Positions 1 through 40,122 of a DNA stretch of 64,000 nucleotides are shown piece after piece; the first letter of the stretch is position 1, and every line of letters starts with the position of its first letter. Both the position numbers and the translations under genes were made by a program. The stretch lies in the IMG/VR virus record IMGVR_UViG_2795385681_000001, positions 1-64,000 of that record; one strand, 5' to 3'. This DNA is from a virus. Its lineage: Duplodnaviria; Heunggongvirae; Uroviricota; Caudoviricetes. A model generated the notes under the pieces. That model was not told where the DNA came from. It saw only the letters and a program-made list of their open reading frames with translations, and ran no database searches.

Positions 1-225
1 ATGACATTCAACCTATGCCACGAGTGCGCTACCGCAATCGTCAACGACGACTACTCAAGTTATGACGTTGACGAGGAACGCATACGTCAGTTCTTGGACT
101 CACTGGATAGCTACCTATGTGTGGAGACCGAAGAGTCAGAGCAGGGCAACGGCGGGTACTGGGATTGCGACGCATGCGAACAAGTGCAGATCGGCCCCGG
201 TCACAACGCAACGGAATGTGACTGA
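1..225 (+). CDS. hypothetical Cys-rich small protein; may begin upstream of the window
   Basis: ORF in frame from position 1 with CxxC and CxxC pairs; first gene of a tightly coupled early block. Confidence 0.4.
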   Translation: MTFNLCHECATAIVNDDYSSYDVDEERIRQFLDSLDSYLCVETEESEQGNGGYWDCDACEQVQIGPGHNATECD

Positions 226-226
226 C

Positions 227-349
227 ATGGACTTGTTCATAGCAGCGTTTGTACTTGCCTATCCCCTAGCCCTAATGGGCACATTGGGGGTTGAGAGTTT
301 CTTGCGGGCAATCGATATCCACTGGCATATCAGTGACTACATGGAATAG
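227..349 (+). CDS. hypothetical small hydrophobic protein (41 aa)
   Basis: ATG 2 nt after the upstream stop, in frame with listed ORF 62..349; hydrophobic. Confidence 0.3.
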   Translation: MDLFIAAFVLAYPLALMGTLGVESFLRAIDIHWHISDYME

Positions 350-427
350 GCAGGATGGACAACGGGATTTTTCACGGCCCGTTGTCCGTCTGGTGTATTT
401 CACCAACACACGGAAGGGACAAGACAC
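350..427 (+). promoter_or_regulatory. conserved early intergenic cassette, copy 1 (hairpin, CTGGTGTATT-CACCAACACACGGAAGGGA, then ATG)
   Basis: GC hairpin ggacaacggg..cccgttgtcc followed by the shared motif and the RBS GGAAGGGA, 8 nt before ATG 428. Confidence 0.6.
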
Positions 428-588
428 ATGCCAAGCGTACCGAGAGAGATAACCAAGAAGTATGGAGTCTATTTCAGCTACTGGGGTAGCGATGAAACAT
501 TTCCAGTAACGGATTGGCAAGAAGACGTTTCCAATGACGACACCAGGCTTGGCTACTGGGATTGGGTAGCGGAGAAAATGCAAGGTTG
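428..588 (+). CDS. hypothetical protein (53 aa, below the ORF-track cutoff)
   Basis: ATG immediately after the conserved cassette and RBS; open to TGA at 586-588. Confidence 0.45.
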
Positions 589-589
589 A

Positions 590-669
590 ACCCATTGCGT
601 CGCACCTAACTCGTTTAGGTGCGTGCGTTGTGTGCTCAATGCATGCAAATACACGGAAGGGATAAGGAA
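590..669 (+). promoter_or_regulatory. conserved early intergenic cassette, copy 2
   Basis: gaacccattgcgt..hairpin..gcgttgtgtgctca..atacacggaagggata then ATG 670. Confidence 0.55.
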
Positions 670-828
670 ATGGACATCATTATTTGGACGGATGACGCGA
701 GTGTCAACGCCAAGGAGATAAACCAGGGTCTAACCAAGTACTGGGCGCGCTCAGTGCGCATCTACTTTAGGCCATCTGGTGAGCTACTGGACGAATACAT
801 CTTTACCGCTGGTGACGACGAGGATTAG
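670..828 (+). CDS. hypothetical protein (52 aa)
   Basis: Internal ATG of ORF 619..828 placed right after the conserved ACACGGAAGGGATA RBS motif. Confidence 0.45.
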   Translation: MDIIIWTDDASVNAKEINQGLTKYWARSVRIYFRPSGELLDEYIFTAGDDED

Positions 829-831
829 TGA

Positions 832-915
832 ACCCATTGCGTGACTCACAGAAGCAATTCTGTGGGTTGCGTTGTGTGCTCACGACACACAATCCACACA
901 CGGAAGGGATTAGAA
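832..915 (+). promoter_or_regulatory. conserved early intergenic cassette, copy 3
   Basis: gaacccattgcgt..hairpin..gcgttgtgtgctcacgacacacaatccacacacggaagggatt then ATG 916. Confidence 0.55.
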
Positions 916-1449
916 ATGGAGTTCACCGAAGTTTCCAATGAAGATGGTGTTGCCACGATCGTCATTAACGATCGGGGCGTAAGCGGTAAAGCCACGGTTT
1001 CGCTTTACGTTCATGTGCCCAGATATGACAACGACAACGAGTTTGTGACCCCTGCGGTTCACATTCGATTCCAGGGACGTGTAACGATCAACAACAAGGA
1101 CTACGACGCATGGCGGTGTAGTGCAGATTATGCGCCTGGACGCTGGGGTGATGCTGAACGCAAGGTATTGACCGACAAGGGGTTTAAGAAAGTCCTCTAC
1201 TCACCTAGTGCAGGTGGAACATTCCGCGAGCTCACAGATAGCGCGCGGAAGAAGCTAGAACAGCTCGCAGCCGTTGTAGCTGACAAGTACCTAACGACCG
1301 AAGCGTCTAAGGCGGCGATCGTTCGATCCGCTCAACACAAGGTGGTGGACGCCATCACCGAGAAAGAAAAGGCTGAGGCTGAGGTACTTGAGCGCATTGC
1401 CGAACTAGACAGCGCGCGTATATATCTCGCACAAATGGAACAACTCTAA
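916..1449 (+). CDS. hypothetical protein (177 aa)
   Basis: Start chosen at the ATG after the conserved RBS motif (MEFTEVSNEDG); ORF 841..1449. Confidence 0.6.
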   Translation: MEFTEVSNEDGVATIVINDRGVSGKATVSLYVHVPRYDNDNEFVTPAVHIRFQGRVTINNKDYDAWRCSADYAPGRWGDAERKVLTDKGFKKVLYSPSAGGTFRELTDSARKKLEQLAAVVADKYLTTEASKAAIVRSAQHKVVDAITEKEKAEAEVLERIAELDSARIYLAQMEQL

Positions 1450-1451
1450 GC

Positions 1452-1538
1452 GTATTGCTCGCTTCAGTCGGGCACGGTCTAACCGTGTCCGGTTGTGGCA
1501 ATCAATCACGAGATTGTCTACACACGGAAGGGATACGC
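1452..1538 (+). promoter_or_regulatory. conserved early intergenic cassette, copy 4
   Basis: hairpin gggcacggtctaaccgtgtcc then ctacacacggaagggatacgc then ATG 1539. Confidence 0.55.
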
Positions 1539-2123
1539 ATGTCGAAGAATCGGAAGTCTGACAGCCTCTCAGTCGATGAGATGGCCGACCGGCTCTTTTC
1601 AATCTGGCAGAGCGCGGCACCGTGGCAGCACGATGCGGGTACTAAGTGGTATGACGCTGCACGGCAGTGGGTTATTGAGGCTGCCGAACGTCACAACGTA
1701 AGCAATGAAGTGGTGGCCGGTGTTATCGCGGCCTACTCACCACAAACCCGATGGGTGGACAACCTGCGGGATGCTGAGTACCACCTAGCAGGTTCTCCCC
1801 TGCGCTCTGGCGTGATGGGGGCGAACGTTCGTCGCGCGGCTGCCGTTATTGAGCATGGATTAGAGGGACTAGGCAACGGGCCTAAGGTTAAAGCGTTCGC
1901 GCACAACATCCTTGGAGATACTGACGCTGTCACAGTAGATGTATGGGCAGCACGTGCAGCGTTCGGAACCATGGACAAAGCCATTGCCGCACAAACGATT
2001 GCGTGGGTTGGCGCCTATGACAAGGTGGCTGACGCATACCGCAAGGCAGCTGCCGCTGCTGGTGTTCCTGCCTCGGTAATGCAGGCAACCGTATGGGTAG
2101 CCATTAGAGGCAAAGCCGAATAG
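1539..2123 (+). CDS. hypothetical protein (194 aa)
   Basis: ATG after the conserved RBS (MSKNRKSD); ORF 1455..2123. Confidence 0.6.
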   Translation: MSKNRKSDSLSVDEMADRLFSIWQSAAPWQHDAGTKWYDAARQWVIEAAERHNVSNEVVAGVIAAYSPQTRWVDNLRDAEYHLAGSPLRSGVMGANVRRAAAVIEHGLEGLGNGPKVKAFAHNILGDTDAVTVDVWAARAAFGTMDKAIAAQTIAWVGAYDKVADAYRKAAAAAGVPASVMQATVWVAIRGKAE

Positions 2124-2125
2124 TT

Positions 2126-2253
2126 CTAGATAGGCAAAGTGGGTCACGGGTATTCCCGTGGCCCGCTTGGTGTATCTAGCACCAAAACACATCCTGACCA
2201 GCATCAATTGGGTAAGTGGTCGGATGGTTTCACCACACGGAAGGGATACCAAA
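2126..2253 (+). promoter_or_regulatory. conserved early intergenic cassette, copy 5 (extended)
   Basis: ataggcaaagtg + hairpin gggtcacgggtattcccgtggccc + cttggtgtatctagcaccaaaaca ... caccacacggaagggatacc then ATG 2254. Confidence 0.55.
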
Positions 2254-2676
2254 ATGTCAACACGTTCAATCCTCATGATTGCCACCGATACCGGAGACGC
2301 TGGTGTCTACGTACACAGTGATGGCTACCCGGACGGGGACTATGGCCGCTTGGCTGTATACAGCAAGATCATCGAACGCGATGGGGTGGATAAGTTCCGC
2401 GCCACTATCCTGGCCGGTGCCGAATTCGGCGGCTGGTCATCGATTTTCGGAGAAGACAACCCGAACAACCACCTTGGCACTGACCGGGCTAAGTCTGTAC
2501 CAGGTTACGGCGTGCGCTATCTCGACGCCGATAGCTACTTGATTCGCCCTGGCGATGATCTGTACGACTCTGGCGCTGAGTATATCTACCACGTTGCCAA
2601 GGACGGCACCATCACGTGGGCCGAGGTCAACAGCCGCGCATACAGCGCACTCACATGGAACCGATTCTCAGCCTGA
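2254..2676 (+). CDS. hypothetical protein (140 aa)
   Basis: ATG after the conserved RBS (MSTRSILMIATD); ORF 2158..2676. Confidence 0.6.
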   Translation: MSTRSILMIATDTGDAGVYVHSDGYPDGDYGRLAVYSKIIERDGVDKFRATILAGAEFGGWSSIFGEDNPNNHLGTDRAKSVPGYGVRYLDADSYLIRPGDDLYDSGAEYIYHVAKDGTITWAEVNSRAYSALTWNRFSA

Positions 2677-2678
2677 AT

Positions 2679-2752
2679 AGGCAAGGTGCGCAGCGGGTCA
2701 ACCCGTTGTGCGCCTGGTGTATTCAGCACCAACACACACGGAAGGGATACTA
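2679..2752 (+). promoter_or_regulatory. conserved early intergenic cassette, copy 6
   Basis: aataggcaaggtg + hairpin gcgcagcgggtcaacccgttgtgcgc + ctggtgtattcagcaccaacacacacggaagggatac then ATG 2753. Confidence 0.6.
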
Positions 2753-3517
2753 ATGGACGACAACAAGCGCGCCAAGATCACTGAGAAAGTGGCCAAGCTG
2801 CTCCGTCAGGCTGAGGATGTCGCGGGTACGCCCGAAGAGGGTGTGTTTCAAGCTCGCGCGTTCGAGATTGTGGCCAAGTACGGGCTAGACATGGCTCAAA
2901 TCCACGCGCGCAAAGAAGGTTTGGATATCTCAGACCTACCAGGCGCGGTCGAATGGTCACTATTCGTGCGTGGCAAGTACCAGTCAGCACAAGCCTTGTT
3001 GCTACATGGCATGGCTCGTGCCCTGCATTGCCGCACCGTCTACTCAAACAGTGGCGGTACCTACCACGTCTGGGTGTACGGCGTGCCTCACCATATCGAG
3101 CGTCTCCAGTTCCTATGGGAGATGTTGCGACCGCAGATGGTTCGACTTGTTGAGGCTGTACGGCCATCGTCGGAGTACCAGCGTATTCACGAGCGGTACG
3201 ACTGGGCCACTGACACTTTCACTACCAAGGTGGTGAAAGACGCTGGTCGGCTCAAGACCTACCGGCGTTCATGGCTTGCGGGTTATGCGCAGACCATTGA
3301 GTCGCGCATTTGTGAGCAGGAAACGATCGCCATCGAGTCAGTCGGTGGTGCTGCCATCGTGCTCTATCGGGGTGACGAACAGCGTGCCGAATTGGCAATG
3401 CAGGACGCTCACCCCCGCGCGCGGCAAGCCAAGACACGCACACGGTTTGACCGTGACGGCTACAGCCATGGTCAGCGTGACGGCAGTCAGGCTGAGTTTG
3501 CGCGAGCGATTGGCTGA
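2753..3517 (+). CDS. hypothetical protein with DUF2786-like N-terminal helical domain (254 aa)
   Basis: N-terminus KRAKITEKVAKLLRQAEDVAGTPEEGVFQARAFEIVAKYGLD resembles DUF2786; start after the conserved RBS. Confidence 0.55.
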   Translation: MDDNKRAKITEKVAKLLRQAEDVAGTPEEGVFQARAFEIVAKYGLDMAQIHARKEGLDISDLPGAVEWSLFVRGKYQSAQALLLHGMARALHCRTVYSNSGGTYHVWVYGVPHHIERLQFLWEMLRPQMVRLVEAVRPSSEYQRIHERYDWATDTFTTKVVKDAGRLKTYRRSWLAGYAQTIESRICEQETIAIESVGGAAIVLYRGDEQRAELAMQDAHPRARQAKTRTRFDRDGYSHGQRDGSQAEFARAIG

Positions 3518-3587
3518 GTCATGGATGCCGGATGGATTGTCGCCTGGATTGTCTGCGCGGCCATCTTCATAGCTCAATGCAAACCGT

Positions 3588-3675
3588 CTAAGTAGGGAAG
3601 GTGGGACGCGAAGGGGTACAAGCCTTTTCGTGTCCCGCCTGCTGTATTTAGACAGCACACACGGAAGGGATACCA
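3588..3675 (+). promoter_or_regulatory. conserved early intergenic cassette, copy 7
   Basis: agtagggaaggtg + hairpin gggacgcgaaggggtacaagccttttcgtgtccc + cctgctgtatttagacagcacacacggaagggatacc then ATG 3676. Confidence 0.6.
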
Positions 3676-3918
3676 ATGACAACCATCACGGCACGACCAC
3701 TGAATGTGATTGCGGACGAGATCAAAAGGGACTGGACTAAGCCCTATTTCGGCGCAGTCCCCTACCTGGACGCTATGGCAGCACTCGGCGACATCGACGA
3801 GCGCTATGGCTGTGACTCTGCTGAGTCCATCGTTCTGCACTTCCTGGCCAACTCTGGAACCTGGCGCGGTGAGGTAGCGCGGCGGATCAAGAGGGAGCTG
3901 AAAGACATTCTCGGCTGA
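3676..3918 (+). CDS. hypothetical protein (80 aa)
   Basis: ORF start coincides with the conserved RBS spacing. Confidence 0.55.
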   Translation: MTTITARPLNVIADEIKRDWTKPYFGAVPYLDAMAALGDIDERYGCDSAESIVLHFLANSGTWRGEVARRIKRELKDILG

Positions 3919-3919
3919 A

Positions 3920-3993
3920 TAGGGAGGGTGTGCGGCAGCTGCGCTGTCGTACGCCTGCTGTATTCAACGGCGATACACGGAAGGGATATCTAA
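3920..3993 (+). promoter_or_regulatory. conserved early intergenic cassette, copy 8
   Basis: aatagggagggtg + hairpin + cctgctgtattcaacggcgatacacggaagggatatc then ATG 3994. Confidence 0.6.
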
Positions 3994-4200
3994 ATGCATA
4001 CGTCTAGCATCCTCGGAACCGATGGAACCGGGGTTATGTGGCAGGGGCCTGGCAGGCTCAACCGAGCCGAGGCCTATAAAGAGGCCGAGCAGCACGCACT
4101 GTACTGGTTTGGCCGTAAGAGCGGTGATGTGTCGGTTGACGACGGCATAATTGTCCGCAACGGGGAGCATGTTGCAAACATCCTGGTAGAGAGGGTCTGA
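3994..4200 (+). CDS. hypothetical protein (68 aa)
   Basis: ORF directly after cassette copy 8. Confidence 0.55.
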   Translation: MHTSSILGTDGTGVMWQGPGRLNRAEAYKEAEQHALYWFGRKSGDVSVDDGIIVRNGEHVANILVERV

Positions 4201-4201
4201 G

Positions 4202-4474
4202 ATGGCTAAGACAACCAACGTTGTCCACCACAACGGGCAGACCTACACCCGAACGGGACGCCGATACTCACACCTGGTCATAGTCACGTCATCAGGGGCG
4301 CGACCCGTGATTCACTGGGCATCCACATTGGAGCTGGCAGAACGTAACGCCAGCCAGATTGCCGGGCGTCGTGACCGTGCTCGCAAGGGCACACTGCGCG
4401 GTGGGTGGGGAGTCGAATGGCACGCCGGTATCACCGACATCGATGTCGTGCCGGTTGAGCACGAATCTGAGTAG
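4202..4474 (+). CDS. hypothetical protein (90 aa)
   Basis: ORF starting 1 nt after the upstream stop (GAGATGG); translationally coupled. Confidence 0.5.
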   Translation: MAKTTNVVHHNGQTYTRTGRRYSHLVIVTSSGARPVIHWASTLELAERNASQIAGRRDRARKGTLRGGWGVEWHAGITDIDVVPVEHESE

Positions 4475-4476
4475 GC

Positions 4477-4545
4477 AGGATGGGACGCGAGTGTTCCTCG
4501 CGGCCCGTCTGGTGTGCTCAGCACCAACACGAGAAGGGATACAAC
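4477..4545 (+). promoter_or_regulatory. conserved early intergenic cassette, copy 9
   Basis: agtaggcaggatg + hairpin gggacgcgagtgttcctcgcggccc + gtctggtgtgctcagcaccaacacgagaagggatac then ATG 4546. Confidence 0.6.
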
Positions 4546-4776
4546 ATGGCACGAATCTGTTACCACACCAACGAGTCTTACTTCAGCCGCGACCACCAGG
4601 GTTACTCGGTTGCAAAGATCACCGAGAACGTGGCGGGGTATGAACCACTACCTGGCCACCACCGGCAGCTCAGTGACGCAGTGGCTATCGCTGACGGGCT
4701 GAACAAGGAGCAGGGCCTCACCCAGGATGACGTCTCGTACATTGTGGCCAGCTCAATGCGATTGGGCACGCTCTAG
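4546..4776 (+). CDS. hypothetical protein (76 aa)
   Basis: ATG after the conserved RBS (MARICYHTNES); ORF 4480..4776. Confidence 0.5.
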   Translation: MARICYHTNESYFSRDHQGYSVAKITENVAGYEPLPGHHRQLSDAVAIADGLNKEQGLTQDDVSYIVASSMRLGTL

Positions 4777-4906
4777 TGGACGCGCAACGGCTACGTTTAG
4801 CCAAGTTGTCCGACGAATACCGGACCACAATGGATGGTGAGGTACTCCACTCGTGGGCTAAGGATGTAGTCCGGCTGATCAGGGAGAGCGACGAGGGGTC
4901 GCAATG
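4776..4906 (+). CDS. possible small coupled ORF (GTG start, ~43 aa)
   Basis: GTG overlaps the upstream TAG; stop overlaps the next ATG (ATGA). Confidence 0.25.
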
Positions 4907-5122
4907 ATTCTCGCGGCCATCCTCATTGCAGGAGGCGTATCACTCACTCCCCCAACAGTTCCCGACTGCGCACGATTCGACGTGTGCAAGTACCAGCCAG
5001 GATACAACGGGCCCCTCATGCCCACCTGGAATACTCCGGGCACGTATGGGGGCTGGACCACCAATCCAGTCTTGTGTGACCCGGTCACGTACCAGTGTCA
5101 GCAAGTAGTACCAGGAAACTAG
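4904..5122 (+). CDS. small secreted or membrane Cys-rich protein (72 aa)
   Basis: N-terminal hydrophobic segment MILAAILIAGGVSL then six Cys. Confidence 0.45.
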   Translation: MILAAILIAGGVSLTPPTVPDCARFDVCKYQPGYNGPLMPTWNTPGTYGGWTTNPVLCDPVTYQCQQVVPGN

Positions 5123-5134
5123 AAAGGGGATCAC

Positions 5135-5326
5135 ATGGTTGAAGTATTGGCAGAAGATCAGCGCAGAGGGTGGCGACTCAAGCTTGCCGCAGTCCCACGG
5201 GTTGCCGATAGGGTACGGATTGAAGGTAAAGACGCGGAGGTGAAGAGTGTCGTTTGGATACCTCAGCCGTACGAGTTCGCTGCAGTAGTGCAGGTCAAAC
5301 TGCCGGTAGAGGGCAGGATGCTGTGA
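5135..5326 (+). CDS. hypothetical protein (63 aa)
   Basis: Good RBS aaagggga 6 nt upstream of the ATG. Confidence 0.5.
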   Translation: MVEVLAEDQRRGWRLKLAAVPRVADRVRIEGKDAEVKSVVWIPQPYEFAAVVQVKLPVEGRML

Positions 5327-5541
5327 GCACTGAGCAATACCGCATCATTCTAAAGATGGAGGACGGGTACAGCAATGAGGTAGTGGGAGAAGATCTTCCG
5401 CAGCTCATCACCACCACCAACGCGCTAGCAGCAGAACATGGTGGAGGGGATGCCCACGACTATCTCGACGAGAACGGATCCATCATCTACACCAACAACG
5501 GTCAGGCGACCGGACGGGCTGACGTAACGCCAGTCATCTAA
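5323..5541 (+). CDS. hypothetical protein (72 aa, GTG start overlapping the upstream stop)
   Basis: GTGA overlap with the upstream stop; in frame with ORF 5254..5541. Confidence 0.4.
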   Translation: MSTEQYRIILKMEDGYSNEVVGEDLPQLITTTNALAAEHGGGDAHDYLDENGSIIYTNNGQATGRADVTPVI

Positions 5542-5559
5542 CACATCTGAATATGGAGG

Positions 5560-5600
5560 AGCCGCAGCGGGAGTAATTCCGTTGCGGCTCTGCTGTTTTC
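5560..5600 (+). terminator. rho-independent terminator (first of a tandem pair)
   Basis: gccgcagcgg-gagtaattc-cgttgcggc hairpin followed by tctgctgtttt. Confidence 0.65.
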
Positions 5601-5606
5601 AGCGCA

Positions 5607-5650
5607 AGGGCATGGGACTCGCGAACCCGTGCCCTTTTTCTATGCCCATA
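5607..5650 (+). terminator. rho-independent terminator (second of the tandem pair)
   Basis: gggcatggg-actcgcgaa-cccgtgccc hairpin followed by tttttc. Confidence 0.6.
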
Positions 5651-5662
5651 GGAAGGGACTAC

Positions 5663-6130
5663 ATGTTATTGGAAGGCTGGACATCAACACCTGTTGAACA
5701 CGAACGACTCACTCGCACCGAGGTAGTCGAGCATGAGCGCTATTGGTCCAAGATGGTCCTGAAGGCGCGCAACCTCCGCCGCAAATATGACCGCGCGGTA
5801 TGGCTCAGTGACGCAAATCGGGCTGAGAGCCTCGCAGAGGCACTGAGATCACTTGGGCCCTCTATGTTGTACGCCCACGGTCGTTGGGAGCGCCACGGGC
5901 GCTGGAACCGCTACTACCAAGTGCGTGGCGGCGCTGTGCACACCACACTCACGTGCCGATGCATCAATGGGGACACAGTATTGAACCCGCTCCCCCAATT
6001 CGCCGGTCGGTCAAGGAAGTTCATCGCAGATCGGTACAAGCTGTGCCGCCACTGTGGAGATAGCAACACGGGTGACATCCCCAGCGACCGCGCATATCGG
6101 TCATTCAAGGTCTACCTACTGATGGCCTAA
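5663..6130 (+). CDS. hypothetical protein (155 aa)
   Basis: ATG after ataggaagggactac, an RBS resembling the conserved one; ORF 5582..6130. Confidence 0.5.
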   Translation: MLLEGWTSTPVEHERLTRTEVVEHERYWSKMVLKARNLRRKYDRAVWLSDANRAESLAEALRSLGPSMLYAHGRWERHGRWNRYYQVRGGAVHTTLTCRCINGDTVLNPLPQFAGRSRKFIADRYKLCRHCGDSNTGDIPSDRAYRSFKVYLLMA

Positions 6131-6131
6131 A

Positions 6132-6199
6132 ACACGCCTTGCCCTGCATTAAGTGGGTCGGGTTTACGTTCTAAATACACGACGGAAGGGATACCCAAA
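6132..6199 (+). promoter_or_regulatory. conserved early intergenic cassette, copy 10 (partial)
   Basis: gggtcgggtttacgttctaaatacacgacggaagggataccc then ATG 6200. Confidence 0.45.
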
Positions 6200-6280
6200 A
6201 TGTTCGACGAGGAAGAGATCGACTACGGCCCCGAATGGTGGGGTGACTACCTCCAGGAGTCAGGGAGGTTGGCTCAGTGA
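6200..6280 (+). CDS. possible leader mini-ORF (26 aa)
   Basis: ATG at the conserved RBS distance; stop overlaps the GTG of the next gene. Confidence 0.25.
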   Translation: MFDEEEIDYGPEWWGDYLQESGRLAQ

Positions 6281-6474
6281 AGTGCTCAGTAAGTTACTGC
6301 TGGGAAAAGTCGGTTGCTAGGGAGATGTGCAGCCACCACTACAACCAGAACTATCCGAGGCGAGACACTCGACTCAACCGCAGGAATCGCGCTGCGCTGG
6401 CAAAACGTCTGGAGTCCAAGGGATTCAGTGTCTCCGATGAGTACCTGGACCAACGGTTGGCGGGGTTGCGATGA
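6277..6474 (+). CDS. hypothetical Cys/His-rich protein (65 aa, zinc-binding-like)
   Basis: CSVSYCWEK..CSHHYNQ pattern; GTG start. Confidence 0.4.
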   Translation: MKCSVSYCWEKSVAREMCSHHYNQNYPRRDTRLNRRNRAALAKRLESKGFSVSDEYLDQRLAGLR

Positions 6475-6746
6475 CCATGGTTGTCACCCGCGACGTTCAC
6501 TACCAGTACTTAATGGGCAAGCGCACACTCACCCCCGGGGTTGAGGTGTCCATCAAGGGCAAGACTGGCCGGTATCGGTTCCAGTACTGGCGACGTACCA
6601 GTGCTGGCATGGATGAACTCACGTTTGTTGGTGGGCCGCTCCATGGCCAGGGTGAGCGATACGTTTCGGTCTACCCTGCGCGGATTACTCGGGTGCATCG
6701 AATCAATAAGACGCTCACCAATATTCAGAGGGAGAAGCGCAAGTGA
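6471..6746 (+). CDS. hypothetical protein (91 aa)
   Basis: ATGA overlap with the upstream gene. Confidence 0.5.
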   Translation: MTMVVTRDVHYQYLMGKRTLTPGVEVSIKGKTGRYRFQYWRRTSAGMDELTFVGGPLHGQGERYVSVYPARITRVHRINKTLTNIQREKRK

Positions 6747-6916
6747 GCGCCACACTGAGGCAGGCACGCCAGTTGCGACAAGGCGATTACCTGCCTGAGT
6801 ACGTCGACACCGTGGATGAGGTGCTGCGGCTGGAGGACTTCGTTGCAGTGACGCTTACGGACTGCGGCACAGTCAAGGTTCTGCACGAGCTTGACGAGGT
6901 GGAGGTGTGGGAATGA
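6743..6916 (+). CDS. hypothetical protein (57 aa, GTG start)
   Basis: GTGA overlap upstream and ATGA overlap downstream; acidic protein. Confidence 0.35.
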   Translation: MSATLRQARQLRQGDYLPEYVDTVDEVLRLEDFVAVTLTDCGTVKVLHELDEVEVWE

Positions 6917-7107
6917 TCCACTGCCCAACCCCCCATAAGGAGGTGTATGCCAACAGGGGCGTGGCGCTAAAAGCAATGAAGGACATACGTAAACGATGCA
7001 AGGCACCGCATTCAAACAGGCGGTACATCCCACTAGAGCCGTACCCCTGCCGGTGCGGTGAATACCATCTGTGCACTGCGGACAAGGCGAAGTTCAGAAG
7101 GAAGTAG
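6913..7107 (+). CDS. hypothetical zinc-ribbon-like protein (64 aa)
   Basis: CPTPH..CKAPH..CRCGEYH motifs. Confidence 0.45.
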   Translation: MIHCPTPHKEVYANRGVALKAMKDIRKRCKAPHSNRRYIPLEPYPCRCGEYHLCTADKAKFRRK

Positions 7108-7111
7108 AGAA

Positions 7112-7146
7112 GAGGGTCAGCCCATAAGGGTTGGCCCTTTTCTTTC
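7112..7146 (+). terminator. rho-independent terminator ending the early arm
   Basis: agggtcagccc-ataa-gggttggccct followed by a T-rich tail. Confidence 0.6.
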
Positions 7147-7217
7147 GCCCGGATCGTTAGTCAATCTAATCAGCTACACACCCAATCATTCAGTCTCCTG
7201 CTGTATCATCTGTGACT

Positions 7218-8609
7218 ATGCGAGCTGCTGTCTACCTGCGCCAATCCATGGACCGTGATGGCGATGGGTTGGCTGTCGAACGGCAGCGTGAAGACTGTCT
7301 GAAGATCTGCACAGACCGAGGCTGGGAGCCCACCCAGTACATCGACAACGACACCAGCGCAAGCAGGGGGCGACGCCCTTCCTATGAGCGCATGCTCTCT
7401 GACATTCGTAGCGGCCATATAGATGCGGTAGTGGCGTGGGACCTCGATCGCCTACACCGGCAGCCCAAAGAGCTGGAGCAGTTCATCGAGCTGGCCGACG
7501 AGAAACGACTCTCTCTGGCGACCGTAGGTGGTGACGCTGACCTATCCACCGACAACGGGAGGCTATTCGCGCGTATTAAGGGCGCGGTGGCCAAGGCTGA
7601 GGTGGAACGTAAGTCAGCCAGGCAGAAGCGCGCCTTCCTTCAGATGGCCCAGTCCGGCAAGGGCTGGGGCCCTCGCGCCTTCGGGTATAACGGGGACCAT
7701 GAGAAGGCGAAGATCGTTCCCAAGGAAGCTGACGCACTGCGCAGTGGGTACAAGATGCTCATGTCCGGCGAGACGCTCTACTCCATCGCGAAGAGCTGGA
7801 ACGACGCCGGTCTGAAGACGCCCCGGGGCAACCTATTCACCGGCACCACAGTGCGCAGAATCCTCCAGAATCCACGCTATACAGCCACACGCACCTACCG
7901 CAATGAAACCGTGGGAGATGGCGACTGGCCAGCGATCGTTGATGAGACGACCTGGGAAGCCGCCCACTCCATCCTCAGCGATCCGTCTCGACACCAGCCA
8001 CGCCAGGTGCGTCGATACCTACTGGGTGGACTACTCACATGTAGCGAGTGCGGGAACAAGATGGCTGTGGGTGTGCAGCACAGAAAGAACGGGAACGTTC
8101 CTATCTATCGGTGCAAGCATGTCAGCTGTGGCCGAGTAACGCGCCGTGTTGAACGGATGGATGAGTGGGTGAAAGAGCTTGTCCTACGCAGGATGTCGAG
8201 CAGGCATTGGGTTCCCGGCAATCAGGACAACCGAGAGCTAGCCCTCGAGTTGCGCGAGGAGCTCGACGCTATCAAACACCGAATGGATTCTCTAGCAGTC
8301 GATTTTGCTGAAGGCGAGCTGACCTCCAGCCAGCTGCGCATCGCCAATGAGCGACTACAGGTGAAGCTGGATGAGGTAGAGAGCAAGCTGCGGCGCACCA
8401 ATGTGAAACCACTCCCCGATGGAATACTCACCGCGAATGACCGTGGCCGCTTCTATGACGAGATGTCACTCGATGCAAGACGGGCCCTCATTGAGGCGCT
8501 ATGCGACTCGATTGTGGTGCACCCCATCGGACTCAAGGGAATGCAGGCCACCCACGCTCCGCTCGGGCACAACATCGACGTCCACTGGCACAAGCCCAGT
8601 AATGGATGA
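7218..8609 (+). CDS. int: large serine recombinase (serine integrase)
   Basis: N-terminal resolvase domain AVYLRQSMD carrying the catalytic Ser; central recombinase and zinc-ribbon (CSECG..CKHVSCGR) regions; coiled-coil C-terminus. Confidence 0.85.
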   Translation: MRAAVYLRQSMDRDGDGLAVERQREDCLKICTDRGWEPTQYIDNDTSASRGRRPSYERMLSDIRSGHIDAVVAWDLDRLHRQPKELEQFIELADEKRLSLATVGGDADLSTDNGRLFARIKGAVAKAEVERKSARQKRAFLQMAQSGKGWGPRAFGYNGDHEKAKIVPKEADALRSGYKMLMSGETLYSIAKSWNDAGLKTPRGNLFTGTTVRRILQNPRYTATRTYRNETVGDGDWPAIVDETTWEAAHSILSDPSRHQPRQVRRYLLGGLLTCSECGNKMAVGVQHRKNGNVPIYRCKHVSCGRVTRRVERMDEWVKELVLRRMSSRHWVPGNQDNRELALELREELDAIKHRMDSLAVDFAEGELTSSQLRIANERLQVKLDEVESKLRRTNVKPLPDGILTANDRGRFYDEMSLDARRALIEALCDSIVVHPIGLKGMQATHAPLGHNIDVHWHKPSNG

Positions 8610-8692: not shown

Positions 8693-8950
8693 TCATCTGG
8701 GTAGAACCTTACTCACTTGCTTCATAACCTCAGCGATGAGCGCCCATGAGCCGTCCGAGTATCGGTGGTGCAGGGTGCCAGATGCGCTGGCTTTCGGAAT
8801 CTTCGTCCCATCCAAAAGCCTGGCGGCACGCTGCTCTGCGTTCCAGCGGTAGACGTATGCACTACCACGGTCAGGGGTGAACATCTCCTCGCGCGAGATG
8901 AATACTTCACCAATAACTCTGCTATTAACCATAATTGGAATGATCAGCAC
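8693..8950 (-). CDS. hypothetical protein (85 aa)
   Basis: GTG start overlapping the stop of the upstream gene. Confidence 0.4.
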   Translation of the reverse strand: MLIIPIMVNSRVIGEVFISREEMFTPDRGSAYVYRWNAEQRAARLLDGTKIPKASASGTLHHRYSDGSWALIAEVMKQVSKVLPR

Positions 8951-13185: not shown

Positions 13186-13193
13186 CTTCCGAG

Positions 13194-13264
13194 TAGTCCA
13201 TGCGGGAATCAAACCCGCACCAACACCTTGAGAGGGTGGTGTGCTCTCACTACACCAATGGACC
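13194..13264 (-). tRNA. tRNA (anticodon not resolved)
   Basis: T-arm gcggg-TTTGATT-cccgc (minus sense) with a complementary acceptor. Confidence 0.45.
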
Positions 13265-13270
13265 TAAGGG

Positions 13271-13609
13271 TTATCGCTCAACCCACGTGCCGGATTCGCG
13301 AACCTCGGTCTTGAGGTTCACCGGCCACATATCACGCTCCACCTGGGCACGCTGTAGGTCTTCACGACCAACCTGACGTTTCACCCATAGCTGGAACTTC
13401 GGCGAGCTCGCCATACGCTTGAACGCGGCCTGCTTGTTCTGCAGCTGGCTACGCTCCTCGCGCGACTCACCCACAGCACCGGACGGTTCATGCGTGATCC
13501 GCACACCCGTCTCGCGCTTGTTCTGGTTTTGACCGCCCTTGCCCCCAGACCGGAATGTGTCAACACGACAATCCGCGAGGGTGACAGACACTACTCGTTC
13601 TCTACTCAC
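13271..13609 (-). CDS. arfB: ArfB-like peptidyl-tRNA hydrolase / ribosome rescue factor (RF-1 GGQ domain)
   Basis: FRSGGKGGQNQNKRETGVRITHEPSG carries the GGQ motif of class I release factors and ArfB (YaeJ); basic C-terminal tail. Confidence 0.7.
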   Translation of the reverse strand: MSRERVVSVTLADCRVDTFRSGGKGGQNQNKRETGVRITHEPSGAVGESREERSQLQNKQAAFKRMASSPKFQLWVKRQVGREDLQRAQVERDMWPVNLKTEVRESGTWVER

Positions 13610-13610
13610 G

Positions 13611-13683
13611 TCAAGTCGACGGGATTTGAACCCGCGTCTTCCGCCTCGACAGGGCGACGCTCTGGACCTCTAAGCTACGACTC
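13611..13683 (-). tRNA. tRNA-Asp (GTC)
   Basis: Cloverleaf parsed by hand: acceptor cgagtcg/cgacttg, anticodon loop ctGTCga, T-loop TTCAAAT. Confidence 0.7.
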
Positions 13684-13794
13684 GATACGCCGTTTTCCGC
13701 ACGCCGGTTTTCGAGACCGACGCGCCAGGGTGGACGGCACCCTGAGCAGACTTTCTGGGAATCAAACCCTGGAGCAGCTCTGCAAAAACTCCCG

Positions 13795-13866
13795 TGGAGA
13801 ATCGGGGAATCGAACCCCGGACGCTGGTGTGCAAAACCAGTGCTTTACCAACTAAGCTAAATCCCC
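13795..13866 (-). tRNA. tRNA-Ala (TGC)
   Basis: Acceptor GGGGATT with the G3:U70 identity pair; D-arm gcttagttggtaaagc; anticodon loop ttTGCac; T-loop TTCGATT. Confidence 0.75.
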
Positions 13867-13892
13867 ATCTAAGCTTCAGGAAGGACATATTT

Positions 13893-14321
13893 ATGAAGCT
13901 CAACCGCATTACTGAACTGGTAGCCAACTCGGCTCACCTGGACGGCCTATCCAACAAGATCCTTAAGCACGCTGACGCGGTCGAGGTCTTAGAATCCGGT
14001 GTCCTTAAGGTTATTTCGCGCTCCGTCCACGATGACGCTACTTGCGAAGACAGCCTTTACCTGGCTCCAGGCGAATGGAAGTCGTTCGCTCAAAGGGGCA
14101 CAACCGTGGTGATCGAGTCCGAGGTCCAAGTCTTTGACTTCGAGATGGGCCTCTCAACCGAAGGCTGCGTCAACTTCGTAGCCGCGTACTTTGAACGAGC
14201 TGAAGGTTACGATCCAGATAACGCTCGCGACCTCGCTCGCGAGGTGGTCTACAACCAGCCGGTTGGTAAGGTCTATGGGTCCAACAAGGTCAAGTTTAGG
14301 TTCGTTTCGAACCCGAACTAG
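13893..14321 (+). CDS. hypothetical protein (142 aa) inside the tRNA array on the opposite strand
   Basis: Strong RBS aggaagga before ATG 13893; clean ORF; listed ORF 13794..14321 trimmed. Confidence 0.5.
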   Translation: MKLNRITELVANSAHLDGLSNKILKHADAVEVLESGVLKVISRSVHDDATCEDSLYLAPGEWKSFAQRGTTVVIESEVQVFDFEMGLSTEGCVNFVAAYFERAEGYDPDNARDLAREVVYNQPVGKVYGSNKVKFRFVSNPN

Positions 14322-14347
14322 TCCTCCACGGATCCAACTACCTACGA

Positions 14348-14420
14348 GCCGCATCGAGGTCTCGAACCCCGTACCTCTTCGTTACTAAGGAAGCGCTCTA
14401 GCCTGATGAGCTAATGCGGC
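14348..14420 (-). tRNA. tRNA-Thr (AGT), tentative anticodon
   Basis: Acceptor GCCGCAT/ATGCGGC perfect; D-arm gctcatcaggctagagc; T-loop TTCGAGA. Confidence 0.6.
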
Positions 14421-14425
14421 AAAGT

Positions 14426-14495
14426 ACCTTGCGAGAGAATTGAACTCCCATCCTCGGGGTGTAAACCCGGTGCCCTTCCGTTGGACGAGCAAGGC
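14426..14495 (-). tRNA. tRNA-Val (TAC), tentative
   Basis: T-arm gagag-TTCAATT-ctctc; acceptor gccttgc/gcaaggt; anticodon loop ttTACac. Confidence 0.5.
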
Positions 14496-14621
14496 ATATG
14501 AGCTTTTGGTTGAGGGTGCCCATGCTGCAGCGAGAGGTCCCTGGCGGATGCTCTATCCGCGCACAAGCTTCCGGCGACAACCGAGGTCTCCACCGTAGGG
14601 TCGCCCATCCCAGGGCGTCGA

Positions 14622-14694
14622 ACGAGTGACCAGATTCGAACTGGCACGATCTGTTTGGAAGACAGAGATGCTAACCGTTAAACATCACACTCGC
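14622..14694 (-). tRNA. tRNA-Gly (TCC)
   Basis: T-loop TTCGAAT; anticodon stem tctgt/acaga with loop ctTCCaa. Confidence 0.6.
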
Positions 14695-14699
14695 ATGGA

Positions 14700-14765
14700 G
14701 CGGCAGAGGTGACTCGAACACCCTTGCAGCGGCTTAGGAGGCCACGCACTTTCCGGAACTACCGC
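14700..14765 (-). tRNA. short tRNA-like gene, possibly Arg (CCT)
   Basis: T-arm gggtg-TTCGAGT-cacct, acceptor gcggtag/ctgccgc, but only about 66 nt with a reduced D-arm. Confidence 0.3.
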
Positions 14766-14770
14766 TTGGT

Positions 14771-14841: not shown

Positions 14842-14843
14842 GT

Positions 14844-38401: not shown

Positions 38402-38573
38402 TGAGCGCCGAGGGACACGACCCCCTCGGCGGCGCAACTGCGCACTCAGGTCGACAGGAAGGGATACTACTTTGCTCGGCCTCCCTGAGTCTCGAGACCC
38501 ATTCTACTGATGCTCCCATTCCTGGACTTCCTGATTGAAGATTCCCGCGTGTTTAAGCAGGTCACAGTGGTTT

Positions 38574-39304: not shown

Positions 39305-40104
39305 GCCACCACTCCCCTCGACATAGGGAGATCGCATCGAGAGGTCTGATTCTCCTCACCGAGGTTGGATCCGGTCTGCATGGTGTGACTCTCGCCAACA
39401 CTGACGACCATGACGAGATGGGCGTTTGCATCCCACCACCGGAATGCGTGCTGGGACTGGAGAAGTTCGAGCAGTACGCCGATCGCTGGCACGCTGATGG
39501 TACTCGCATTCCCGATGGTGTGCGTAGCCAGCACGGGGACACTGACCACACGACGTACGCACTGAACAAGTGGGCACGCCTTGCGGCGCAGGGTAATCCG
39601 ACTGTGCTACCGCCGTTGTTCGCACCACCCAAATCCATCTACCACAAGTCCCCAGAAGGCCAACAGATCGTATCTAACCGGAATCTGTTCCTCTCCAAGG
39701 ACGCTGGGTGGAGGTTCCATGGGTACCTCAAGGATCAGCGCGCACGTATGGTCGGCGAGAAGGGTAAGTCCAAGCACAAGAACCGCCACGAGCTGGTCGA
39801 GCAGTTCGGTTTCGATACCAAGATGGCGTACCACGCTCTTCGCTTGGCCGTCCAAGGTGCGCAACTAATGACGCACCACAACATCACCATCCCGATGCAT
39901 GCGATCGATGTGACGTGGCTACGCGCAGTTCGACGCGGTGATTACGCGCTGGAAACGGTTACCGAATGGCTGGACACCTACACCGAAGGCCTTGAGGCCA
40001 ACATCGAAACGTCCACGCTGCCTGATCACGTCGACCACGACCAACTGAACGACTTTCTCATCGGCCTGCACTACAGCTTCTGGAAACGCACGGGACAACT
40101 TTGA
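39301..40104 (+). CDS. pol-beta-superfamily nucleotidyltransferase-domain protein
   Basis: GSGLHGVTLANTDDHDEMGV fits the GS-x(9-11)-DxD nucleotidyltransferase motif; GTG start overlapping the upstream stop. Confidence 0.5.
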   Translation: MSHHSPRHREIASRGLILLTEVGSGLHGVTLANTDDHDEMGVCIPPPECVLGLEKFEQYADRWHADGTRIPDGVRSQHGDTDHTTYALNKWARLAAQGNPTVLPPLFAPPKSIYHKSPEGQQIVSNRNLFLSKDAGWRFHGYLKDQRARMVGEKGKSKHKNRHELVEQFGFDTKMAYHALRLAVQGAQLMTHHNITIPMHAIDVTWLRAVRRGDYALETVTEWLDTYTEGLEANIETSTLPDHVDHDQLNDFLIGLHYSFWKRTGQL

Positions 40105-40122
40105 ACACGAAGGGATACGCAT

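Follow-up and report, generated by a model that had tools for sequence, protein, structure and literature searches.

A conserved RNA hairpin and ribosome-binding cassette repeated before small genes of a Cluster M / MabI-type mycobacteriophage

At one end of a prophage lie eleven small genes, each preceded by a cassette made of a hairpin and a ribosome-binding motif, the hairpin being weak before the gene at 6200. The window, meaning the whole 64 kb stretch of DNA analysed, comes from a Cluster M / MabI-type mycobacteriophage (Mclasvirinae), a Mycobacterium abscessus-type prophage. The repeat class is already known, as the array is the local M. abscessus-prophage variant of the Cluster M CR3/CR4 repeats. 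Its hairpin is an RNA structure, specific to one strand and with a defined location with respect to the flanking stop and start codons. The array is probably the MabI-clade version of CR3/CR4 and their stem-loops, punctuating one polycistronic mRNA, with the cassette acting in messenger RNA and not in DNA.

The array, its source and its relatives

A megablast search with positions 1-8000 matched only the MabI prophages prophiT49-2, prophiGD54-2, and prophi86-1 (Vilmaviridae; Mclasvirinae). The window also contains 22 tRNA genes and one tmRNA gene. According to the citing paper PMC7953290, Pope et al. 2014 described "CR3/CR4", conserved repeats that have stem-loops upstream and lie between Cluster M genes of the rightmost region. 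A covariance model, R1, was built from eight MabI-type cassettes, four from the window and four from prophiT49-2, prophiGD54-2, and the IMG/VR loci L124 and L128. R1 identifies 12–16 sense-strand copies (E up to 0.01) in the rightmost regions of each of Bongo, Rey, and Estes, with best E-values reaching 6e-13. Its matches in the window are confined to the + strand at 342-5620, bar one antisense match. This antisense match is weak and lies on the 2673-2726 palindrome. A structure-only scan of both strands of the 64 kb (at least 20 pairs) found eight long in-register hairpins on the + strand, all within 342-5602, compared to one on the - strand and 0–2 in shuffled sequence.

The ribosome-binding motif likewise recurs far above chance. 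Eight exact copies of ACACGGAAGGGA occur, all on the + strand (408, 651, 898, 1522, 2235, 2736, 3659, and 3975), against a chance expectation of 0.37, and this number was reached in 0/100 shuffles. Counting the variants at 4526-4539, 5648-5658, and 6177-6191, the motif lies 5–11 nt upstream of eleven start codons (428, 670, 916, 1539, 2254, 2753, 3676, 3994, 4546, 5663, and 6200). Being start-codon-associated, in one orientation and limited to non-structural genes, it is alike in concept to the start-associated sequences (SAS) of Cluster K; however, its consensus differs and the SAS consensus is not above chance in the window. The initial comparison to SAS with another consensus was therefore sound, but it missed the identity with Cluster M CR3/CR4 and their stem-loops. 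Early expression of the cassette genes is suggested by their position and by the homology of gene 2753-3517 to L5 gp77. The individual copies are as follows.

342..427, + strand: cassette 1; hairpin 342-402, CA-rich spacer, ribosome-binding motif ACACACGGAAGGGA at 406-419, ATG 428; upstream TAG 347-349 forms stem positions 6-8; RNAfold -34.4 kcal/mol, z = -4.9; 25/29 in-register pairs; R1 E = 4e-12.
586..669, + strand: cassette 2, type B leader GAACCCATTGCGT; hairpin 586-639 carrying a 1-nt bulge, motif 649-662, ATG 670; upstream TGA 587-589 forms stem positions 2-4, as read from the letters; R1 E = 0.08; RNAfold prefers the upper stem plus a second hairpin of 8 bp.
828..915, + strand: cassette 3, type B; hairpin 828-883, motif 896-909, ATG 916; geometry as cassette 2, mismatches at stem positions 5, 7, and 11; 23/26 in-register pairs, 24 pairs in the scan; R1 E = 0.007.
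1454..1538, + strand: cassette 4, third leader type; hairpin 1454-1506, motif 1520-1533, ATG 1539; 22/25 in-register pairs; z = -4.8.
2127..2253, + strand: cassette 5; hairpin 2127-2178 (extends to 2121-2184), motif 2235-2246, ATG 2254; inverted-repeat element inserted at 2187-2232; 26/30 pairs; R1 E = 1e-12 over model positions 1-65 only.
2673..2752, + strand: cassette 6, the archetype; hairpin 2673-2726, motif 2734-2747, ATG 2753 (L5 gp77 homologue); stem of CUGAAUA, 1x1 mismatch, GC, A·G mismatch, and 14-bp upper stem; upstream TGA forms positions 2-4; RNAfold -38.6 kcal/mol; R1 E = 1e-22; RNAalifold 23 pairs, 9 compensatory.
3588..3675, + strand: cassette 7; hairpin 3588-3651, motif 3657-3670, ATG 3676; 28/30 in-register pairs, 19-bp upper stem; RNAfold -46.0 kcal/mol, z = -7.8.
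3915..3993, + strand: cassette 8; hairpin 3915-3966, motif 3973-3986, ATG 3994; RNAfold z = -5.2; R1 E = 1e-19.
4467..4545, + strand: cassette 9; hairpin 4467-4521, motif variant AACACGAGAAGGGA at 4526-4539, ATG 4546; lower stem CUGAGUA/UGCUCAG, compensatory changes relative to cassette 6; R1 E = 2e-18.
5547..5662, + strand: cassette 10, Bongo/Rey-like leader CUGAAUAUGGAGGAGC; hairpin 5547-5602, motif variant AUAGGAAGGGA at 5648-5658, ATG 5663; canonical intrinsic terminator 5606-5641 (GC stem and UUUUU) between hairpin and motif; 24/26 pairs; R1 E = 7e-8.
6140..6199, + strand: cassette 11; weak hairpin only, 6140-6167, RNAfold z = 0.07, not improved over shuffles; motif ACACGACGGAAGGGA at 6177-6191, ATG 6200.
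38451..38467, + strand: orphan copy CAGGAAGGGATAC, downstream of a GC-rich hairpin; neither ATG nor GTG within 12 nt, and the TTG 5 nt after the motif opens no ORF of at least 70 aa.
40101..40122, + strand: copy of the ribosome-binding motif alone, ACACGAAGGGATACGCAT; abuts the TGA of ORF 39301-40104, 7 nt before ATG 40123; 16S duplex dG = -9.3 kcal/mol.

The first-pass annotation listed three such motif-only copies. This description holds at 40103, which directly abuts the upstream TGA 7 nt before ATG 40123. At 38455 the copy is an orphan as stated, but it is preceded by a GC-rich hairpin, and the copy at 5645 (before 5663) follows a full hairpin and a terminator.

A single long hairpin in the RNA

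Each cassette hairpin is one long interrupted stem of 20–28 in-register pairs spanning 53–64 nt, with a conserved base and a variable upper stem of 12–19 bp. The cassette was initially described as an AATAGG(C/G)A(A/G)GGTG leader in ten copies, a variable 9–12 bp hairpin, and a separate mini-hairpin. The leader is present in six of the ten (428, 2254, 2753, 3676, 3994, and 4546), while those at 670 and 916 carry GAACCCATTGCGT, 1539 has a third sequence, and 6200 has only the weak hairpin. Rather than standing apart, the leader pairs with the first 12 nt of 'CTGGTGTATTCAGCACC', which are the 5' half and loop of the mini-hairpin, to form the lower stem, and the supposed variable hairpin is the upper part of the same structure. 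The mini-hairpin appears only as an alternative fold, with the 5' arm constrained to stay single-stranded, and in its fixed register only 51.5% of cells are paired.

Pairing in the long hairpin is strongly supported by covariation. In the lower 16 stem positions of 40 distinct cassettes, 92% of cells are paired and 12/15 pairs show compensatory change, with a covariation score of 0.545 versus 0.206 in shuffles (0/500 reach 0.545) and no more than 0.213 with partners slid. For the whole hairpin in 60 distinct sequences, 96.1% of cells are paired and 20/23 pairs are compensatory, with a score of 0.724 versus 0.245. The percentages of paired cells are inflated by construction, as in-register pairing was maximised to anchor alignment A3 and the model served as the template for A6; compensatory counts are unaffected. 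RNAalifold recovers the same fold. The sense strand is the more stable in 50/50 distinct hairpins (mean -36.0 vs. -23.9 kcal/mol), G·U pairs make up 229/1228 (19%), and 22/56 hairpins are tipped by GNRA or UNCG tetraloops. Stem position 11 is an invariant A·G mismatch with G·U pairs on both flanks. The sequence conservation of the base within a genome, this mismatch included, is more than would be expected if any hairpin sufficed and points to a specific binding partner.

The hairpin is also tied to the reading frames on either side. In 43/43 distinct cassettes the upstream stop codon lies in the stem base or no more than 13 nt before it, at stem position 2 in 19, at position 6 in seven, and 1–13 nt before the base in 17. 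The base is 23–40 nt upstream of the start codon in 34/43, separated from the ribosome-binding motif by a single-stranded, CA-rich spacer of 10–20 nt. The motif, ACACGGAAGGGAUAC, is itself fixed, lies 5–11 nt before the ATG and is unpaired in predicted folds. Its GGAAGGGA part pairs over 8 bp with the last 8 nt of the 16S rRNA 3' end (dG around -9.8 kcal/mol, ranging from -9.3 to -10.2 kcal/mol in 12/12 copies), and it plausibly contains a Shine-Dalgarno element.

Alternative readings of the cassette

The stop codon position could also suit a translation-coupled RNA switch, in which the pyrimidine-rich 3' arm mimics an anti-Shine-Dalgarno sequence and is held by a purine-rich, SD-like 5' arm (GGAGG / GGCAAGG). 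A ribosome terminating at the stem base would open the hairpin, and the 3' arm would refold to the mini-hairpin or onto the real ribosome-binding site; a 30S subunit might also pass across the base of the stem and reach the following start codon. Translation of a gene would in this way tune its downstream neighbour. When the first 15 nt are single-stranded, the 3' arm does form the mini-hairpin in at least five of ten window cassettes and pairs onto the ribosome-binding site in cassette 428. The motif is reproduced literally within the 5' arm in Estes 168 (ACACGGAGAAGGG) and Rey 171 (ACGGAGAAGGG), and mini-hairpin pair 23-35 is split between nine C-G and nine G-C. However, a register other than the fixed one of the mini-hairpin scores better, and the long hairpin exceeds the alternative fold in stability by ~10–12 kcal/mol. 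The ribosome-binding site is free in both states in 9/10 window cassettes, leaving no clear on/off logic, and a switch is considered unlikely.

Independent transcription of each gene, the first option of the earlier annotation, would require a terminator and promoter per cassette, as in the T4 PeSL model. A GC-rich stem does lie directly 3' of each gene, two upper stems scored as terminator-like (3599-3640 and 5558-5591), and the gene-by-gene mosaicism resembles that of T4 PeSLs (PMC4122927). Nonetheless, promoter and terminator signals are absent from the cassettes. A consensus scan, which is blind to non-canonical or phage-specific promoters, found no sigma-70-like site on the + strand of 1-7200, the only + strand match being at 8906-8935, past the integrase gene. 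The mycobacterial -10 pattern TANNNT is found between hairpin and motif in 0/43 distinct cassettes. 'TATTCA' was considered as a -10 candidate and rejected, as the hexamer is not conserved and varies by clade in step with its pairing partner. There is no U-tract after the full hairpin (mean 0.44 T in the next 8 nt, 43 cassettes); after the upper stem alone the mean is 3.6, with at least five T in only 6/43. This T-containing stretch covaries with the stop codon arm (UGA with UCA, UAA with UUA, UAG with CUA), indicating selection on pairing and not on U-richness. Where termination is evidently called for, the hairpin is followed by a canonical terminator with UUUUU (5606-5641). Separate transcription units are thus improbable.

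Mosaic breakpoints do fall inside cassettes. Between the window and seven relatives, 38/86 blastn block ends lie within them, cassettes 587-663 and 827-910 are kept while their flanking genes are replaced, and both L001 (start 1385) and L003 (start 1257) contain a hybrid cassette. Cassettes that outlast their neighbours, with an attC- or REP-like layout of conserved base, fixed unpaired positions, and variable centre, might be seen as a selfish or recombination-only palindrome (REP-, MITE-, or integron attC-like) that spreads with gene cassettes and has no regulatory role. However, the crossover points differ, being in the 3' arm in L003 and the ribosome-binding motif in L001, which fits homologous and not site-specific exchange. 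By direct reading, no attC core sites (RYYYAAC / GTTRRRY) are present in the stem base CTGAATA...TATTCAG, and the sole nearby recombinase is a serine integrase. An orientation that strictly follows transcription, a fixed spacing from the start codon, and G·U pairs on the sense strand argue for selection at the mRNA level, making a purely selfish repeat very unlikely.

Finally, a double-stranded DNA site for a phage regulator can be largely dismissed: the conserved half-sites form an imperfect inverted repeat, and the Cluster K authors favoured a DNA-binding reading of extended start-associated sequences (ESAS; PMC3203893), but the half-sites are 25–40 bp apart with a covarying palindrome as spacer, GNRA and UNCG tetraloops are enriched, and neither the 19% G·U nor an antisense strand folding 12 kcal/mol worse in 50/50 is an asymmetry expected of double-stranded DNA.

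Proposed role in a polycistronic transcript

The preferred reading, punctuation of one polycistronic mRNA, infers roles for the hairpin in processing, stabilisation, or insulation, together with enhanced translation. A single long transcript would run through the array, each intergenic unit consisting of hairpin, CA-rich spacer, and ribosome-binding motif. As the hairpin starts at the upstream stop codon or within 13 nt of it on the 3' side, a ribosome that terminates there must open it, and it would re-form once the ribosome has passed. It may then seal the upstream cistron as a barrier against 3' exonucleases. RNase III sites are present in the early regions of T7 and SP82. By analogy, the hairpin would most likely also be the target of RNase III or another double-strand-specific RNase, a candidate processing enzyme that its modelled geometry would fit.

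At its own edge, the hairpin would hold the next ribosome-binding site single-stranded and uniform, and any small gene inserted in the array would gain an identical translation start. Genes inserted 'with associated copies of CR3' are reported in PMC7953290. Crossover between repeats would be a side effect of this arrangement, with the repeats serving as homologous crossover points through which relatives exchange genes cassette by cassette.

The cassette array and its genomic setting

Eleven cassettes, each consisting of an intergenic hairpin, a CA-rich spacer, a ribosome-binding motif and an ATG, lie in the window and are named by their start codons. The repeat proposed in the first-pass annotation is real: ACACGGAAGGGA occurs eight times exactly, always on the + strand, against 0.37 expected, and with close variants included the motif lies 5–11 nt upstream of eleven ATG codons from 428 to 6200. 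A scan for structure alone, covering both strands of the whole window, recovered eight + strand hairpins with at least 20 in-register pairs, all within 342–5602, and one on the − strand, while shuffled sequence gave 0–2. The − strand hairpin (50366–50415, 20 of 23 pairs), the sole long in-register hairpin off the array, sits in a GGTGGCGGTG-type repeat and is probably coding sequence that folds by chance.

The proposed leader consensus holds for six of the ten copies to which it had been assigned; 670 and 916 share another leader (type B), 1539 has a third, and 6200 carries only a weak hairpin. The copy before 5663 had been listed as a bare ribosome-binding version, but carries a full hairpin and a canonical terminator. 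An additional copy resembling the bare versions, CCCAGGAAGGGATGCGATG at 36349–36377, was missing from that list. An Rfam search of window 1–7000 at E up to 5 gave chance-level matches only, including the SR6 antitoxin at 5559–5645 with 27.9 bits against a gathering score of 55. Among the matches listed from a pattern search of IMG/VR with ACACGGAAGGGATA, most were single chance matches and only loci L006 and L037 were true relatives; the multi-copy loci L084 and L043 were rejected as tandem coding repeats unrelated to the cassette element.

The array is framed by the following features.

5606–5641: canonical intrinsic terminator (GC stem and U-run), inside cassette 10
7126–7139: canonical intrinsic terminator (GC stem and U-run), just before the integrase gene
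7212–8609: serine integrase gene, which the cassette array (342–6199) adjoins and reads toward
13193–19133, − strand: 22 tRNA genes and a tmRNA (tag ANAHQSDYVLAA), a set typical of Cluster M / MabI phages

Window 1–8000 matches only prophiT49-2, prophiGD54-2 and prophi86-1 (megablast, 50,697 phage records), with 81–86% identity to these three M. abscessus prophages at the right end of their records, on the minus strand. All three are classified as Vilmaviridae; Mclasvirinae, and MabI prophages were grouped with Cluster M mycobacteriophages by Dedrick et al. 2021 (PMC8092301). The large tRNA set, tmRNA and serine integrase of the window phage are those of the Cluster M / Mclasvirinae lineage. 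An integrase-anchored search of GTDB species genomes found no relatives. The integrase GTG at 7212 is preceded by TGTATCATCT (7190–7214), with a −10-like TATCAT 2 nt before the GTG and no Shine–Dalgarno (SD) sequence, and the integrase mRNA may be leaderless. The int genes of Bongo and Rey have TAAGAT 7 nt upstream of the ATG.

The protein of gene 2753–3517 is 58% identical to gp77 of mycobacteriophage L5, and 343 actinophage records contain a homologue. A search with this protein returned hundreds of Cluster A phages (the L5 gp77 family), not Cluster M, and so gave context rather than further cassettes. Pfam matches among ten cassette genes were solely DUF7178 (gene 1539) and DUF2786/DUF7168 (gene 2753). 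The array genes are termed putatively early solely from the gp77 homology of 2753–3517 and from position. Between gene 2753 and cassette 7 lies a 24-codon ORF, MDAGWIVAWIVCAAIFIAQCKPSK (3521–3595), which may encode a small membrane peptide or be spurious; its TAG forms stem positions 6–8 of hairpin 7. In prophi86-1 an annotated ArdA-like antirestriction gene (2074–2412) stands behind the same type-B cassette at the position of window gene 916, which fits the idea of an array holding swappable early counter-defence genes.

Hairpin anatomy and the start-proximal motif

Registering 43 distinct cassettes from the stem base, drawn from ten loci (the window, three MabI prophages, three IMG/VR prophages, Bongo, Rey and Estes), revealed a single geometry common to all. 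Stem positions 1–7, counted from the hairpin base, are mostly paired, with a 1x1 mismatch at position 6, 7 or 8. In alignment A3, G·U occupies pairs 9–24 and 12–21 in 38 and 37 of the 40 cassettes, respectively, and position 11 is a mismatch in all 40, being A·G in 37. The upper stem is 12–19 bp of free sequence, capped by a GNRA or UNCG tetraloop in 22/56. In total the hairpin has 20–28 in-register pairs and spans 53–64 nt. The start codon lies 23–40 nt downstream of the hairpin base in 34 of the 43 cassettes, the remainder having insertions. The upstream stop codon falls at stem position 2 in 19/43, at position 6 in 7/43, and 1–13 nt before the base in 17/43, so every terminating ribosome must open the lower stem.

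This anatomy differs from that first described. The leader is not a separate element, as RNAfold has it paired to the loop and 5' half of what was taken for a mini-hairpin. The mini-hairpin itself is not conserved: only 51.5% of cells pair in a fixed register, and another register is better. It corresponds to the 3'-arm fold predicted with the first 15 nt constrained to be single-stranded, the condition expected under a terminating ribosome, in at least five of the ten window cassettes. The folding model thus makes it a possible alternative state rather than a conserved element.

Covariation supports the long hairpin. In A3 (40 sequences, gap-free, anchored) compensatory change is present in 12 of 15 lower-stem pairs (106 cells), and the covariation score of 0.545 compares with 0.206 when shuffled (0/500 reach 0.545) and at most 0.213 for slid partners. 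RNAalifold gave the same fold for eight MabI-type cassettes, with 23 pairs, nine of them compensatory. The covariance model R1, built from the same eight cassettes, recovers 62 copies in nine loci, and their alignment shows compensatory change in 20 of 23 pairs, a score of 0.724 against 0.245, and 96.1% of cells paired, a type of percentage that is inflated because A3 was anchored by maximising pairs and alignment A6 was fitted to R1, so that the compensatory counts and slid controls carry the information. All 50 distinct hairpins compared fold more stably as the sense strand than as its reverse complement (mean −36.0 vs. −23.9 kcal/mol), and 229 of 1228 pairs are G·U. The strand asymmetry and the tetraloops indicate a structure in sense-strand RNA rather than a duplex-DNA operator or cruciform.

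Downstream of the hairpin, the ribosome-binding motif is unpaired in predicted folds. In 12 of 12 copies GGAAGGGA forms a duplex with the eight terminal nucleotides of the mycobacterial 16S rRNA, which ends in UCCUUUCU-3', with a ΔG of −9.3 to −10.2 kcal/mol. The conserved flanks, ACAC upstream and UAC downstream, have no possible pairing with rRNA. The same argument on conserved non-pairing flanks was made for the start-associated sequences (SAS) of Cluster K by Pope et al. 2011 (PMC3203893). Hairpins of subcluster M2 have a further copy of the motif as their 5' arm, literal in Estes 168 (ACACGGAGAAGGG) and Rey 171 (ACGGAGAAGGG) and near-identical in Rey 170 and Estes 167 (ACACGGAGAAAA / ACACGGAGAAGA). 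Each such cassette (Rey 170–171, Estes 167–168) therefore has one sequestered and one free copy.

Relation to Cluster M repeats and other phage elements

Cluster M phages have "conserved repeats CR1 through CR4", as stated in the relevant passage of Fitzgerald et al. 2021 (PMC7953290), which credits Pope et al. 2014 (J Virol 88:2461) and also has genes inserted in Cluster M arriving "with associated copies of CR3". The window shares with the CR3/CR4 phages the Mclasvirinae lineage and a location at the genome end, between genes running toward the serine integrase. It also shares the order of parts, from stem-loop through an RBS-linked motif to the ATG, and the carriage of a repeat copy by inserted genes. 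Repeats in one orientation between many of the rightmost genes, with a stem-loop upstream, are found alike in window 342–6199, Bongo, Rey and Estes, and direct inspection of the latter three revealed the same modules upstream of their rightmost genes. R1, half of whose cassettes come from the window and all of which are MabI-type, matches 12–16 sites each in Bongo, Rey and Estes (L002, L130, L131) with E no higher than 0.01 and a best E of 6e-13, and every site is on the gene-sense strand. The window repeats are thus a MabI-clade member of a described class. Two papers on MabI prophages, PMC8092301 among them, do not mention the repeats.

The clades differ in detail. The RBS motif is ACACGGAAGGGAUAC in the window, against ACACGG(A)GAAGGGAA in Bongo, Rey and Estes. 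In the window the hairpin base reads CUGAAUAGGCAAGG / CCUGGUGUAUUCAG, whereas in the other three it is mostly C-U-R-R-...ACGGAGGAG / CUCUGCUGU...YYAG. Unlike the Cluster M CR3/CR4 phages, the window phage has M. abscessus as host, as a prophage. CR3 appears to approximate ACACGGAGAAGGGA, a form deduced from the sequence of the "inserted CR3" upstream of Estes gene 172, and the window motif equals this form minus one base.

Between the hairpin and RBS of cassette 5, at 2187–2232, sits an inserted inverted-repeat element, CTGACCAGCATCAATTGGGTAAGTGGTCGG, which reads TGACCAG ... CTGGTCA in relatives. Elements of this type also precede the first cassette gene in prophiGD54-2 (~150–185 of locus L003), prophi86-1 (~95–140 of L004) and locus L125 (~120–165). 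The equivalent place in Bongo gene 134 and Rey gene 154 holds CTGACCTG(C/T)GATTACAGG, and the 1.9-kb non-coding region at the right end of Bongo has at least six copies of GCAGGTCA. The CTGACCAGCATCAATTGGGTAAGTGGTCGG element may be an operator, or one of CR1/CR2.

The likeness to start-associated sequences with another consensus, noted in the first-pass annotation, was borne out in position and SD core (PMC3203893). Both the Cluster K SAS (3–7 nt before the ATG) and the window motif are asymmetric repeats closely preceding start codons, with an SD core and conserved non-pairing flanks, and both are confined to non-structural genes (PMC3203893). The 13-bp SAS consensus GGGATAGGAGCCC is absent: allowing up to two deviations, 3–7 bp before starts, there were 2 matches against 1.5 expected, neither at a cassette. 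Upstream of half of the SAS copies lies an imperfect inverted repeat whose spacer varies, and the window cassettes can be likened to this arrangement. These extended SAS (ESAS) are 17-bp imperfect inverted repeats with a 4–13 bp spacer, whose pairing as RNA was unsupported according to the authors, who favoured a DNA-binding interpretation (PMC3203893). The window cassettes instead have conserved arms of 11–16 nt separated by a self-complementary segment of 25–40 nt, and their arms covary clearly as RNA.

As with the promoter-early stem-loops (PeSLs) of T4-type phages, small conserved intergenic stem-loop motifs flank variable early ORFs and form crossover points for modular gene shuffling. 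Stem-loop motifs lie at the boundaries of indels and replacements of variable ORFs, and 38 of 86 homology-block ends fall inside cassettes (blastn, window vs. seven relatives). Cassettes 587–663 and 827–910 are kept while the genes between them are replaced. Hybrid cassettes also occur: in L003 (start 1257, in prophiGD54-2) the window-670 hairpin is joined to the 3' part of window-916, and in locus L001 (start 1385) the window-916 cassette is joined to the window-1539 start region. The crossovers lie at differing points in the repeats, indicating homologous exchange, as also proposed for T4 PeSLs (PMC4122927), rather than site-specific, attC-type exchange. An integron attC site was rejected in its own right, as the stem base CTGAATA...TATTCAG lacks GTTRRRY (core RYYYAAC ... 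GTTRRRY), the adjacent recombinase is a serine integrase rather than an IntI tyrosine recombinase, and the junctions are variable.

Possible functions of the cassettes

On balance, the cassettes probably serve as RNA-level punctuation of a polycistronic transcript. The hairpin would insulate and protect the upstream cistron, or mark it for processing, and would present a uniform, unstructured ribosome-binding site to the next cistron. In T7/T3 and the B. subtilis phage SP82, RNase III processing sites lie between early genes. As at those sites, related long, mismatch-bearing imperfect hairpins occupy each early intercistronic region; part of their sequence is conserved close to a fixed position and the rest varies, and the upstream mRNA would keep a protective 3' hairpin. 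The hairpin sequences themselves are unrelated to the T7/T3 and SP82 sites. The cassettes provide the ~20 bp or more of imperfect dsRNA of an RNase III substrate and, by analogy, most resemble the T7/SP82 early-region sites because of their length of ~2 to 2.5 helical turns, fixed internal mismatches and occurrence once per intergenic gap; cleavage itself is putative. REP/BIME elements, the intercistronic palindromes of enterobacterial operons, fold in mRNA and stabilise the upstream cistron. Like the cassettes, they recur as imperfect palindromes that follow stop codons directly within operons, but they are shorter, host-chromosomal, present in both orientations and not coupled to a conserved ribosome-binding motif.

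A bolder, doubtful proposal is that the stem base is a specific recognition site making the whole array one post-transcriptional regulon. The site would comprise the invariant A·G mismatch at position 11 and its flanking conserved G·U pairs, 11 nt from the stop-codon-bearing base. Its reader would be the terminating ribosome itself or a dedicated RNA-binding protein or nuclease, of phage or host origin, and cutting, stabilisation or translational coupling would then be coordinated across the array. If true, this would be an operon-punctuation mechanism so far undescribed for actinobacteriophages.

An unlikely alternative to punctuation is that each cassette acts as a termination-coupled switch or anti-SD mimic. 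It is improbable that each contains a terminator and a promoter, the arrangement of T4-type PeSLs, which are composite terminator/promoter units (Arbiol et al. 2010, PMC2839356; Comeau et al. 2014, PMC4122927). Unlike PeSLs, the cassettes have no detectable promoter or U-tract, early sigma-70 promoters included, and their conserved downstream part is a ribosome-binding motif. The earlier suggestion that every gene is independently transcribed is not supported by the same consensus scans: no sigma-70-like + strand site occurs in 1–7200, the sole + strand match (8906–8935) lying past the integrase gene, and TANNNT is found between hairpin and RBS in 0/43 cassettes. A −35/−10 pair split by the hairpin ("TAGGCA ... 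TATTCA") was rejected since neither its spacing of 36 nt nor that of 4 nt with the stem extruded fits. The hairpin was also rejected as a Rho-independent terminator, with a mean of 0.44 T in the 8 nt after it and at least five T in 0/43. The U-run terminators at 5606–5641 and 7126–7139 are ordinary terminators used where the phage needs them, and they suggest division of the array into two or more transcription units. MabI prophage papers examined for transcripts of the array region gave none. It is very unlikely that the repeat is purely selfish or recombinational, and a duplex-DNA operator is scarcely tenable given that strand asymmetry and tetraloops point to sense-strand RNA.

The feature is real and well structured, its anatomy is corrected here, and its class has already been described in Cluster M; nothing in it is conceptually new beyond what work on Cluster M, the Cluster K SAS and T4 PeSLs had suggested. 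Phages considered for M. abscessus therapy have relatives in Cluster M and MabI, and the location of the MabI repressor has been called "unclear" (PMC8092301). The module provides a sequence rule for locating the true start codons of tiny orphan genes, and is a candidate for a portable part, serving translation initiation and insulation, in mycobacterial genetics. Each genome offers roughly twelve paralogous copies, all of which vary in a compensatory manner, and the array is also a natural test bed for mycobacterial mRNA processing and for the movement of gene cassettes between phages.
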